Virus genome (UHGV): UHGV-0036384
Length of the DNA: 64,000 bases
Origin: a virus
Strand: one strand, 5' to 3'
This document shows positions 6,029 to 7,575 of the stretch, one piece after another (position 1 is the first letter of the stretch; the number at the start of each line of letters is the position of its first letter). Under the pieces are notes generated by a model. It was not told where the DNA came from and made no database searches. It was given only the letters and a program-made list of their open reading frames with translations. The position numbers and the translations under genes are program-made.

Positions 6029-6211
6029 CAGGGTTTTCGTCATGGTTAGCGACTTTGCGGCGGTTTAGAAACTGACCATTAAAGTAAATGCAAACGATGA
6101 TCTGATGATGGTAGCGGCCTAAGAAGCCAGACGCCACGGGGTATGAGTCGTCCCCCGTCAAAAAATCGACCGCAGAGTGTCCCCGTCTGTGTATTAGGGA
6201 ACGGGGAGGCA

Positions 6212-6288
6212 CAACAGGTAAGGGCGCTGGTGTGATTAACCAGATGAACGAGAAGGGGCCATCTGTTGGTCAGCGTCCTTTCCTGTTG
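6212..6288. repeat. structured inverted-repeat element, unit 0 (candidate small RNA)
   Basis: 18-bp stem CAACAGGTAAGGGCGCTG / CAGCGTCCTTTCCTGTTG (one mismatch, one G-U) around a 41-nt loop with an inner hairpin; shares the CAACAGGTAAGGG arm with units A-C. Confidence 0.5.
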
Positions 6289-6493
6289 CGTCTTCTTTTC
6301 AGCGTAACAGCGGTGCTTAACAGCACTTTGGGTACAGTTCCACTAATTTACGGGTATATCCCGTCATGCTGAAGGCGCTAATCACGCTGGAAGCCAGGGT
6401 TATGCATCCCCTGTTACCGAATTGCAGCCAGGGCGCGGTGCGCCGAAAAGCATACGGAGGTGGAAGCCCTCGCCGGAGACGTACCCGGCAAGT

Positions 6494-6569
6494 GATGGTG
6501 TAGCTCAGCGGTTAGAGCGGTTGACTGTTAATCAACGGGTCGATGGTTCAAATCCATCCACCATCGCCA
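6494..6569 (+). tRNA. tRNA-Asn (anticodon GTT), CCA encoded
   Basis: Manual cloverleaf: acceptor GATGGTG/CACCATC, D-arm GCTC..GAGC, anticodon loop CTGTTAA, T-arm GATGG-TTCAAAT-CCATC, discriminator G then CCA. Confidence 0.85.
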
Positions 6570-6571
6570 AT

Positions 6572-6647
6572 GCCGGTTTAGCTCAGTTGGTAGAGCGCCT
6601 GCCTTGTAAGCAGGATGTCAGCGGTTCGAGTCCGTTAATCGGCACCA
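6572..6647 (+). tRNA. tRNA-Thr (anticodon TGT), CCA encoded
   Basis: Manual cloverleaf: acceptor GCCGGTT/AATCGGC, D-arm GCTC-AGTTGGTA-GAGC, anticodon arm CCTGC-CTTGTAA-GCAGG, T-arm AGCGG-TTCGAGT-CCGTT, then ACCA. Confidence 0.85.
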
Positions 6648-6648
6648 G

Positions 6649-6743
6649 CACAACAGGTAAGGGTATTTTGCGACGTCGGAGATCGCCGAGCTTGGCAGAG
6701 GGTTCGAATCCCTACGAAGTACCCTTACCGTTGTGATGAATGC
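6649..6743. repeat. structured element, unit A (tRNA-like T-arm inside a 10-bp stem), directly abutting tRNA-Thr CCA
   Basis: Stem GGTAAGGGTA (6656-6665) / TACCCTTACC (6720-6729); internal canonical T-arm AGGGTTCGAATCCCT (6699-6713); conserved 3' tail CCGTTGTGATGAATGC. Not a complete cloverleaf. Confidence 0.5.
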
Positions 6744-6865
6744 GCAGGCTGATGCGCGAAAGACATTGCAGCTATTGCGGAAAAGAGCTGTTCGGCGGGG
6801 CAATTAAACGCCCGTGAGAGTCTGAAATAACCGCAAGCCGGAGATCAGCACCGGTCATCACAACA

Positions 6866-6940
6866 CAACAGGTAAGGGCATTCTCCCTTATGGGGCTTGG
6901 CTTAAATGCATCGAGTGCTCTTACCGTTGTGATGAAGTGC
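6866..6940. repeat. structured element, unit B
   Basis: 13-bp stem GGTAAGGGCATTC / GAGTGCTCTTACC with two G-U pairs; same 5' arm CAACAGGTAAGGG and 3' tail CCGTTGTGATGAAGTGC. Confidence 0.5.
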
Positions 6941-7076
6941 AGCTCTTTGAAGCAACCAGAAGATAAGCATCTGGCTTCACAACATAAACCGCAGGAACGA
7001 CCAATAAACGGTAGTCCGTATGGAGAACACCCCGTTGAGGAAGAGGCCTGGCCGGAACCGTAACCGGCACTACAAC

Positions 7077-7176
7077 GTTGAGAACACTGGCGTAACGGGG
7101 TCATATCCCAATCTACGAATAAATGTTGCGTTGCAGCGTGACAACCAGTGTTCTCAACATTGTGGTGAATGCACAG
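7077..7176. repeat. structured element, unit D
   Basis: Perfect 14-bp stem GTTGAGAACACTGG / CCAGTGTTCTCAAC; inner hairpin CGTA-ACGGGGTCATATCCCAATC-TACG; 3' tail ATTGTGGTGAATGCACAGGCTGATG matching unit A. Confidence 0.5.
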
Positions 7177-7348
7177 GCTGATGTGCCGCAACTACAGTAG
7201 TGCGCGCTTTGCGGGGCTTGCTACAACCCTGTGTCGGAGTTCAGCACCGACCATCACAGTTTGATTCTCTGGCATGAGCATAACGCTGAAATAAGTCCAG
7301 CCTGGTGCGGCCCGATCACCCGCCGTTAGCTCCACGAAACGGAGCACG

Positions 7349-7435
7349 TAACAGGTAAGAGCATTCTCCTGTAACGGGTTCATATCCCAATCTACAGGTC
7401 CACCAAGAATGCTCTTTCCGTTGCGGTGAATGCGG
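7349..7435. repeat. structured element, unit C
   Basis: 14-bp stem GGTAAGAGCATTCT / AGAATGCTCTTTCC (one mismatch); inner hairpin CCTGTA-ACGGGTTCATATCCCAATC-TACAGG with compensatory change relative to unit D; tail CCGTTGCGGTGAATGC. Confidence 0.5.
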
Positions 7436-7575
7436 CTAAGCGCACGCGGGGAAATGGTTATATCAGTCCATTCATTTCTCCTTGTTTCCCCGTCCACGGT
7501 GGATAACCAGCCAAAGGACACCGGGAGGCACCCGGCACCGCAGCTTTTTTATTCGTTAAATAATGGAGTGAGAGG

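Follow-up and report, generated by a model that had tools for sequence, protein, structure and literature searches.

In the rRNA operons and in the early region of phage T7, RNase III stems form long duplexes that bracket or separate the functional RNAs of one transcript. In the Qin prophage, a 190-nucleotide (nt) DicF species is lost without RNase III (PMC10448788 and its Fig. S1, citing Faubladier et al. 1990), and this species begins where RNase III cuts the dicBp transcript, "between positions 813 and 814" (PMC10448788). Prophage small RNAs (sRNAs) of the STnc100/PasD type (RF02076) have also been described (bioRxiv 10.64898/2026.05.13.724894). Here, we report on 64,000 nt of the virus genome UHGV-0036384 (the window, whose numbering is used unless another locus is named), a P1-like phage-plasmid in which about 1.4 kb around a tRNA-Asn/tRNA-Thr pair carries an array of five long hairpins (H) interleaved with a second type of structured module (M). 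We propose that the array, which is part of the long untranslated leader of the ban operon, is probably a set of modules for RNase III processing and punctuation.

The Qin dicBF operon and the window share the hairpin family; the Qin hairpin has a (C)AUAAC/GUUGUG base, an AAGCGCA/UGCGCUU box and about 22 bp. Further points of likeness are a repressor-controlled polycistronic prophage transcript, DicF-precursor sequence 3′ of the hairpin and, after the terminator, an STnc100-like module preceding the first downstream open reading frame (ORF). However, Qin has one hairpin and no tRNAs, whereas the window has five hairpins around two tRNAs, and the stem sequences differ. The lambda late leader contains a hairpin (GCACAACAGGTAAGAGC...GCTCTTTCCGTTGTG; 44,788 to 44,863) immediately 3′ of tR′, with arms (CACAACAGGTAAGAGCA...TGCTCTTTCCGTTGTG) as in window units 3 and 5, but it is present in a single copy and follows a terminator instead of a tRNA. 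Daniels, Subbarao, Blattner and Lozeron are reported to have located RNase III processing sites in this leader in vivo in 1988 (cited in PMC7547250). The STnc100/PasD sRNAs lie, like the array, in noncoding spacers of phage operons, and positions 7422 to 7542 align with them, including the closing helix and the CCGGGAGGCACCCGG hairpin; the window copy differs in scoring below threshold and in having no sRNA-type terminator of its own beyond the T-run. The rRNA and T7 stems differ from the array in that they bear no sequence relation to it, and the cargo bracketed in the window measures 30 to 90 nt.

Two module types around the tRNA pair

A first-pass annotation made from the window's letters had placed five structured inverted-repeat elements around the two tRNA genes, and folding confirmed all of them. 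The minimum free energy (MFE) of each unit was compared to those of 200 shuffles; no shuffle (0/200) matched the fold of any of the five units, and the z-scores ranged from -3.55 to -7.18. All units are on the plus strand. H1 (6210 to 6290; MFE, -39.3 kcal/mol; z, -3.55) folds 6 kcal/mol better in sense than in antisense and is preceded by a small hairpin at 6181 to 6206. H2 (6649 to 6737; -41.6 kcal/mol; z, -4.99) starts 2 nt past the CCA of tRNA-Thr, and H3 follows at 6864 to 6933 (-33.6 kcal/mol; z, -4.78). H4 (7068 to 7167; -49.0 kcal/mol; z, -7.18; inverted repeat I1) has a 26-bp stem and H5 (7347 to 7426; -34.7 kcal/mol; z, -5.81; inverted repeat I4) a stem of about 25 bp; H2 to H5 are units A to D of the first-pass annotation. 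The predicted stems of all five units extend over 19 to 30 bp and are interrupted by single-base bulges or mismatches only, thereby offering the near-continuous duplex of about two helical turns (20 bp or more) that is taken as the mark of an RNase III substrate. The sense fold was better than the antisense fold by 4 to 11 kcal/mol in 5/5 units, and in a 5-by-5 pairing matrix the cognate 3′ arm was the best partner of every 5′ arm.

The 5′ arm (C/T)AACAGGTAAG(G/A)G was found at 6212, 6651, 6866 and 7349, and an inner motif, ACGGG(G/T)TCATATCCCAATC, at 7095 and 7374. Both had been described before, as had a T-arm in the loop of H2 and a shared 3′ tail, and none of these motifs has a convincing copy elsewhere in the 64 kb, with the exception of the T-arms of real tRNAs. 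The consensus of the hairpins is CACAAC...RAGRGCA...loop...UGCYCUY...GUUGUG: the units have a CACAAC/GUUGUG stem base, an inner RAGRGCA/UGCYCUY box, covarying positions between the two and a loop of 30 to 95 nt. Units 1 to 3 fit in full; unit 4 has an ACAACG/CAUUGU base and an AGAACA box, and unit 5 has UAAC/GUUG. In many H hairpins, the 3′ arm reads UGCUCUU(A/U) (6915 to 6925 and 7409 to 7419 in the window; L012, 1048 to 1058, in lambda), a sequence that boxA of the lambda nut sites and of the rrn operons resembles; the box is paired in the predicted fold. Antitermination of the put type was considered separately, and a sequence-level comparison detected no H or M motif in HK022 between 17 and 40.7 kb. 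The rule that an H hairpin always follows a 3′-end-forming element holds for tRNA-Thr, tRNA-Ser and tR′ but is not general; a small hairpin precedes most copies.

The supposed 3′ tail of the hairpins is indeed present at 6730, 7159 and 7420 (GTTGTGATGAATGC-like), with a looser copy at 6926; however, it belongs to the M modules, of which it is the 5′ strand, so that two module types alternate in the order H1, tRNA-Asn, tRNA-Thr, H2, M1, H3, M2, H4, M3, H5, M4, ORF. The M consensus comprises GUUGYGRUGAAUGC, a hairpin h1 (GCGCAGGCUGAUGCGC), a variable core, a hairpin h2 (CCGG-AGAUCAGCA-CCGG) and YCAYCACAAC. M1 (6730 to 6864, plus strand; inverted repeat I12) is closed by a long-range helix of 10 bp, in which GTTGTGATGA at 6730 to 6739 pairs with TCATCACAAC at 6855 to 6864, and contains h1 at 6742 to 6757 and h2 at 6838 to 6854. 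M2 (6926 to 6983, plus strand; direct-repeat family D2) is short, with GTTGTGA..AAG, CTTCACAAC and an h2-type hairpin, CCAGA-AGATAAGCA-TCTGG. M3 (7159 to 7260, plus strand; families D1 and D2; motif scan) consists of ATTGTGGTGA with CCATCACAGT, h1 GCACAGGCTGATGTGC and h2 GTCGG-AGTTCAGCA-CCGAC, and both of its hairpins are compensated relative to M1. Between the window copies, h1 thus occurs as GCGCA/TGCGC and GCACA/TGTGC, and h2 as CCGG, GTCGG/CCGAC and CCAGA/TCTGG. The closing helix exists in relatives in three compensated versions (GTGATGA/TCATCAC, GTGGTGA/TCACCAC and GTGGTGG/CCACCAC).

M4 (7420 to 7550, plus strand; fold z, -2.99) is closed by GCGGTG/CACCGC and leads over a T-run to the first ORF (7576). 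Its match to the Rfam STnc100 model is partial (7422 to 7542 against model positions 31 to 147 of 206; E, 8e-6) and, at 37.8 bits, below the gathering threshold of 47, so that M4 is STnc100-like but not counted as a member of that family; the P7 copy scored 43 bits, and the other M modules did not match the model. M4 is a homologue of the Qin dicF-dicB spacer (L136, 19452 to 19585). The Rfam scan, which the first-pass annotation had suggested, covered the window and five related loci at permissive thresholds: apart from the subthreshold STnc100 match, tRNAs alone passed, and no H or M module reached the threshold of any Rfam family.

Relatives, covariation and the RNase III site of Qin

A scan for CACAAC...GUUGUG hairpins gave 157 matches in 1.3 Mb of phage DNA versus 10 in shuffled DNA. 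The stems of this family are very diverse, with the CACAAC/GUUGUG base and the RAGRGCA/UGCYCUY box as their common features. In other phages, the H and M modules are always sense oriented; sense orientation in an operon leader applies also to lambda and to L004, L009, L010 and L011. In a lambda-type prophage, window unit 3 recurs immediately 3′ of tR′ (L010, 3000 to 3066), the lambda hairpin is followed by sequence that P7 has after tRNA-Ser, and in a different phage-plasmid H hairpins whose stems are quite unlike these follow tRNA-Thr and tRNA-Ser. Many lambdoid phages, and E. coli prophages in their hundreds, have early-left leaders whose first 135 nt match M1 at 98% identity. There, the M1-like stretch comes just after a cI-type repressor gene and terminator and directly 3′ of a sigma-70-like promoter whose operator is palindromic; it leads over an intrinsic terminator and an H-type hairpin to yfdP, the first early-left ORF. 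The array is thus not special to P1 or to tRNA clusters, since the same hairpin occurs after lambda tR′ and in many prophage leaders. H and M modules are a broad, unnamed family of phage leader modules, and a modular leader-RNA kit of H hairpins, M/STnc100-like modules, DicF-like RNAs and tRNAs is common to P1, lambda, Qin and many Enterobacterales prophages.

Because bulge positions misalign, a stem-only RNAalifold analysis was unsuitable, and we instead used a test of cognate against noncognate arms and an alignment of 26 homologous lambdoid elements that bear the inner motif of units 4 and 5. Among 32 family members, cognate arms paired with a mean of -28.0 kcal/mol versus -18.0 kcal/mol for noncognate arms, and the inner 16 nt of the arms are merely 42% identical. 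In the alignment of the 26 diverged relatives, 99% of the cells were paired. Double-sided changes were seen in 8 pairs, compared to 4.2 ± 0.9 in shuffles (0/500 reached 8) and at most 2 with slid partners. G·U occurred in 11 pairs and A·C in 2; this excess argues for selection on the sense-strand RNA and not on a DNA palindrome. Together with the better sense fold, these data bear out the earlier view that the elements function at the RNA level. The compensatory changes that had been noted between copies hold for diverged copies and relatives, in which pairing is preserved, but not for close orthologues (see below).

An experimentally mapped RNase III site lies, by our reading of the published cut, in one member of the family. 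The Qin hairpin (L136, 19173 to 19258; CCAUAAC.GC.GAAAGCGCAUGG...CCGUGCGCUUC.CG.GUUGUGG; MFE, -38; z, -3.5) is located just upstream of dicF, and its 3′ arm is nearly identical to prophage members such as GAGTGCGCTTCCAGTTGTG. It is followed by the DicF-precursor sequence common to P1 and, after the DicF terminator, by an M/STnc100-like module beside dicB with almost the sequence of the P7 copy. A distance of 190 nt upstream of the DicF 3′ end corresponds to L136 19246 to 19250. When the dicBp transcript is counted from a start at approximately L136 18438/9 (7 to 8 nt past the TAATCT -10 element at 18426 to 18431), the cut is placed at 19250 to 19252. Both estimates fall inside the 3′ arm of the hairpin (19239 to 19258). 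The enzyme indicated is therefore RNase III and not RNase P or RNase E, as had been suggested, while "processing signals for the tRNA operon" was the best-fitting option of that annotation, the interpretation of which is partly supported: the elements concern the RNA level and processing. In K-12, H and M elements were not found in CPS-53 or DLP12; K-12 RNase III data sets are therefore usable for Qin only.

The stretch from 5800 to 7600 is 99.9% identical to vB_EcoM-813R1 and 99.4% identical to RCS47, and its layout was taken over from the P1 annotation of the homologous stretch; dmt ends at 5821 of the window. The array-bearing operon starts with the C1 operator pair Op72/Oban and the Pban promoters (5811 to 5845, plus strand; inverted repeat, 5811 to 5840). 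A DicF-precursor-like RNA region follows (5880 to 6030, plus strand), annotated in P1 as the "dicF-like region" and, as read from sequence, homologous to Qin L136 19260 to 19340. It resembles the 5′ part of the 190-nt Qin DicF precursor and not the 53-nt DicF, and Rfam DicF did not match 5880 to 6030. This region is closed by an intrinsic terminator (stem, 6002 to 6021, followed by T7), the sole strong one on the plus strand that a terminator scan found in the area, so that transcription of ban and of the tRNAs depends on read-through or on a further promoter. tRNA-Asn (GTT; 6494 to 6569; Rfam tRNA, 74.5 bits) and tRNA-Thr (TGT; 6572 to 6647; 72.9 bits) were called by ARAGORN on the plus strand. 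The array has the strand of Pban, of both tRNAs and of the downstream ORFs, the first convincing ones of which begin on the plus strand at 7576 with a small membrane protein followed by an SPFH/Band-7 lipoprotein. Since Pban and its operator precede the array and ORFs begin only at 7576, the array lies within an untranslated leader of about 1.7 kb of the C1-controlled ban operon. Literature searches on P1 transcript data and on the hairpin sequences yielded nothing useful.

In the mechanism that we propose, RNA polymerase from Pban would pass the DicF-like terminator by read-through, and each H hairpin would fold during transcription. Host RNase III would cut both arms across each stem, and these cuts would separate the DicF-like RNA, tRNA-Asn/Thr, the M modules and the mRNA downstream, whose 5′ untranslated region is STnc100-like. 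tRNA-Thr would be left with a 3′ trailer of about 10 to 18 nt for exonuclease trimming, and the hairpin tops would be freed as small RNAs. The M modules would be structured spacers closed by the long-range helix; in lambdoid phages, this module forms the 5′ domain of a leader RNA that is short and terminated. The dense structure might additionally shield the untranslated RNA from Rho and decay. Such a mechanism would give a testable account of how phages release tRNAs and sRNAs from repressor-controlled operons.

Several observations weigh against this proposal. Among close P1 orthologues, 15 distinct outer-stem substitutions were found, of which 8 keep the pair, 7 break it and none is compensated; the stem substitution rate equals the loop rate. 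This pattern is what neutral drift gives. SJ46 (L008, about 2260 to 2350) and one metagenomic relative (L086) have a hybrid hairpin in which the shared 25-nt inner motif links a 5′ half from unit 4 to a 3′ half from unit 5; the arms of the hybrid do not complement each other, and this natural deletion, which breaks the structure, indicates that individual units are dispensable. RNase III cleavage is established for the Qin member, which is diverged (AAGCGCA/TGCGCTT subtype), and the function would thus be transferred to the P1 units by homology. That the in vivo processing sites in the lambda leader coincide with the lambda hairpin is a presumption and is not counted as a result. No promoter other than Pban was found, and the strong terminator at 6002 to 6021 separates Pban from the array. 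Finally, the conserved sequence within stems and loops exceeds what RNase III requires.

Whole units are also gained and lost. P1 lacks unit 3 and M1 by a deletion between direct repeats CTTACCGTTGTGATGAA, and P7 lacks unit 2. The conserved flanks CACAAC and GTTGTGRTGAA act as recombination joints for this turnover. Deep covariation in combination with unit loss argues that the fold has been selected in the long term while single copies are expendable.

Other readings of the array

An alternative would place selection on the loops. Here, the stems would be excision stems, as they flank 16S and 23S rRNA, and would release tRNA-mimic RNAs that act on host factors: a T-arm RNA from unit 2 and an RNA resembling a CAU anticodon arm from units 4 and 5, which may be decoys for tRNA-targeting nucleases or modification enzymes or ligands of the ribosome or IF3. 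RNase III cutting is compatible with this alternative, which differs in what is selected. In the loop of unit 2 there are an acceptor-like extension of 7 bp (UAUUUUG/CGAAGUA) and, at 6699 to 6713 on the plus strand, a textbook T-arm (motif GGTTCGAATCC at 6701), whose only occurrences elsewhere in the window with at most one mismatch are in the two real tRNAs; as had been noticed before, it stands after tRNA-Thr without a full cloverleaf. The look-alikes of an anticodon arm are on the plus strand in the loops of H4 (7095 to 7113) and H5 (7374 to 7392), where they read GGG-(G/U)UCAUAU-CCC. The inner motif of lambdoid relatives (CGGGCTCATAACCC / CGGGCUCAUAACCC) agrees exactly over 14 nt with the anticodon arm (positions 29 to 42) of the E. 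coli initiator tRNA metZ. When the search anchor left out the motif, it was kept exactly in 99 of 122 elements while the surrounding helices covary; the others show CUCAUUC, CCCAUAA, CUCAUUA, CCCACCA and further variants.

A genome-wide scan with a 17-base loop motif returned 73 matches, approximately the number expected by chance, with true members confined to the matches in about 25 Enterobacterales species; this distribution, like two textbook T-arm hairpins in the loops of other family members, favors selection on the loops. However, the window copies, GUCAUAU and UUCAUAU, are not the initiator loop, and their stem has only 3 bp. CAU is lost in some relatives (CCCACCA and CCCUAAC), and nothing tRNA-like is seen in the loops of units 1 and 3 or in that of lambda. 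Shared ancestry accounts for part of the motif conservation, since close relatives make up many of the sequences, and the tRNA-like pieces could be decayed tRNA genes. We regard selection on the loops as unlikely; the pieces may be either relics of tRNA genes or selected mimics, and our analysis at least brings a conserved look-alike of a tRNA anticodon arm to notice.

Improbable, in our judgment, is the more general claim that the H hairpins are a widespread, unrecognized class of RNase III-excised phage small RNAs whose loops mimic tRNA parts and act as decoys or ligands. The types may be an initiator-like anticodon arm (GGG-CUCAUAA-CCC) and T-arms, and the P1 array may be several mimics beside real tRNAs. 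If this claim were true, partners would include anticodon nucleases like VapC, which cuts tRNA-fMet, as well as modification enzymes, the 30S P site with IF3 and defence factors. H hairpins of 125 to 135 nt that hold two T-arm-like hairpins (e.g., GTCTGGTTCGATTCCAGAC and GTCCGTTCGATTCGGAC) and a variable hairpin in the loop were observed at L025 7940 to 8069, L055 5825 to 5954 and L100 1928 to 2060 and in L120 and L026; no tRNA was called there. The suggestion that the units of the window are tRNA-like small RNAs or C4-like RNAs did not hold: ARAGORN called only Asn, Thr and Met tRNAs, the Rfam tRNA model detected none on the units at E values up to 10, no unit forms a cloverleaf, and P1 C4 antisense RNA (RF01695) had no match in 5000 to 9500 at E values up to 10.

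We consider it equally improbable that the modules are mainly passive, that is, dense structure guarding the 1.7-kb untranslated transcript against nucleases and Rho, or decayed tRNA cassettes and recombination linkers with no sequence-specific role, or both. The close orthologues without a selection signal would agree with such a role, as would the gain and loss of whole units between direct repeats in P1, P7 and SJ46 and the presence of real tRNAs (Tyr and Ser) at corresponding places in related phages. Deep covariation and the G·U excess, however, require selection for pairing on one strand, the CACAAC/GUUGUG base and the RAGRGCA box persist across very different stems, and one member of the family has a mapped RNase III cut.

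It is highly improbable that the region codes for the minus-strand proteins Plp and Upl and that the repeats are coding repeats. Minus-strand ORFs of 139 and 109 codons exist (6772 to 7521) and are annotated as plp and upl in P1 and RCS47, which qualifies the earlier statement that the region has no convincing ORF. No Pfam family scored above threshold, however; PGAP calls neither gene in RefSeq P1-like plasmids, where it lists only tRNA-Thr under full-length matches, and both are unannotated in P7 and D6. The ORF ends and length differ between P1 and the window, P1 plp overlaps tRNA-Thr in antisense, and the predicted P1 upl promoters lie in sequence that the window does not share. Moreover, the same DNA modules sit in noncoding leaders of other phages, and relatives differ by the gain and loss of entire units in this region. 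Most likely, plp and upl are not genes but artefacts of long GC-rich repeats, and an RNA-level reading of the 1.4-kb stretch replaces these doubtful P1 genes.

There is similarly very little to be said for the idea that the RNAs, by virtue of their C/A-rich and G/U-rich boxes (CAUCACAACACAACA; CCGUUGUGAUG), act on the host sRNA GcvB as sponges or mimics in the manner of the prophage anti-sRNA AgvB: CACAACA is the GcvB R1 target consensus (PMC4104026) and the GUUGUGAUG box of the modules is found in GcvB itself too, but the boxes pair with each other in the predicted structures, the predicted pairing of the segment at 6845 with GcvB 56 to 100 (-23.6 kcal/mol) is only at about the first percentile of the window background with the best matches elsewhere, and AgvB is a terminated sRNA of 51 to 60 nt in which the 3′ region is conserved and CACAACA is accessible, whereas CACAACA is paired here and Rfam AgvB did not match. 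Nor are the units a host repeat of the REP/BIME type, which the first-pass annotation had named as a contrary finding; those palindromes measure about 35 bp and are scattered over intergenic regions of host chromosomes, whereas the units are 70 to 100 nt long and the inspected chromosomal matches lie in prophages.

Neighboring genes and further loci

Downstream of the array, the stretch from 7576 to 8620 codes for a 78-amino-acid membrane protein and the SPFH/Band-7 lipoprotein (Pfam E, 1e-30) where P1 has tciA, tciB and tciC. A further tRNA (CAU) is located after the lipoprotein gene (8648 to 8723).

In the lambdoid phage Lys8385Vzw, Rfam C4 (75 bits) and isrK (62 bits) match the minus strand near antirepressor-type genes (L004, 274 to 459); among the loci searched, these two families occurred only there, outside the module region. 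The lambda orf-64 (L012, 822 to 1016) overlaps 6S RNA, tR′ and the 5′ arm of the lambda hairpin and may, like plp and upl, be an ORF read across structured noncoding RNA.

Two tRNA-like genes accompany the modules at other loci. A tRNA-Ser(UGA)-like gene of 87 nt lies among modules in P7 (L007, 2487 to 2573), D6 and L011 (3249 to 3335); it scored 46.6 bits on the Rfam tRNA-Sec model (threshold, 47), and its amino acid in the D6 record was not callable by tRNAscan. The second (L100, 1800 to 1925; also in L167) has a 68-nt insertion in the anticodon region and reached 40 bits on the Rfam tRNA model with no ARAGORN call; an H hairpin comes immediately after it, and a DicF-like sRNA (29 bits) after that hairpin. 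Metagenome-assembled genomes of Saccharibacteria/Patescibacteria (L195, L218 and L242; L196, L203 and L238) contain the 17-base loop motif in two conserved contexts, e.g., gttcagttaagaacaagtctctACGGGGTCATAACCCAATCttgt.

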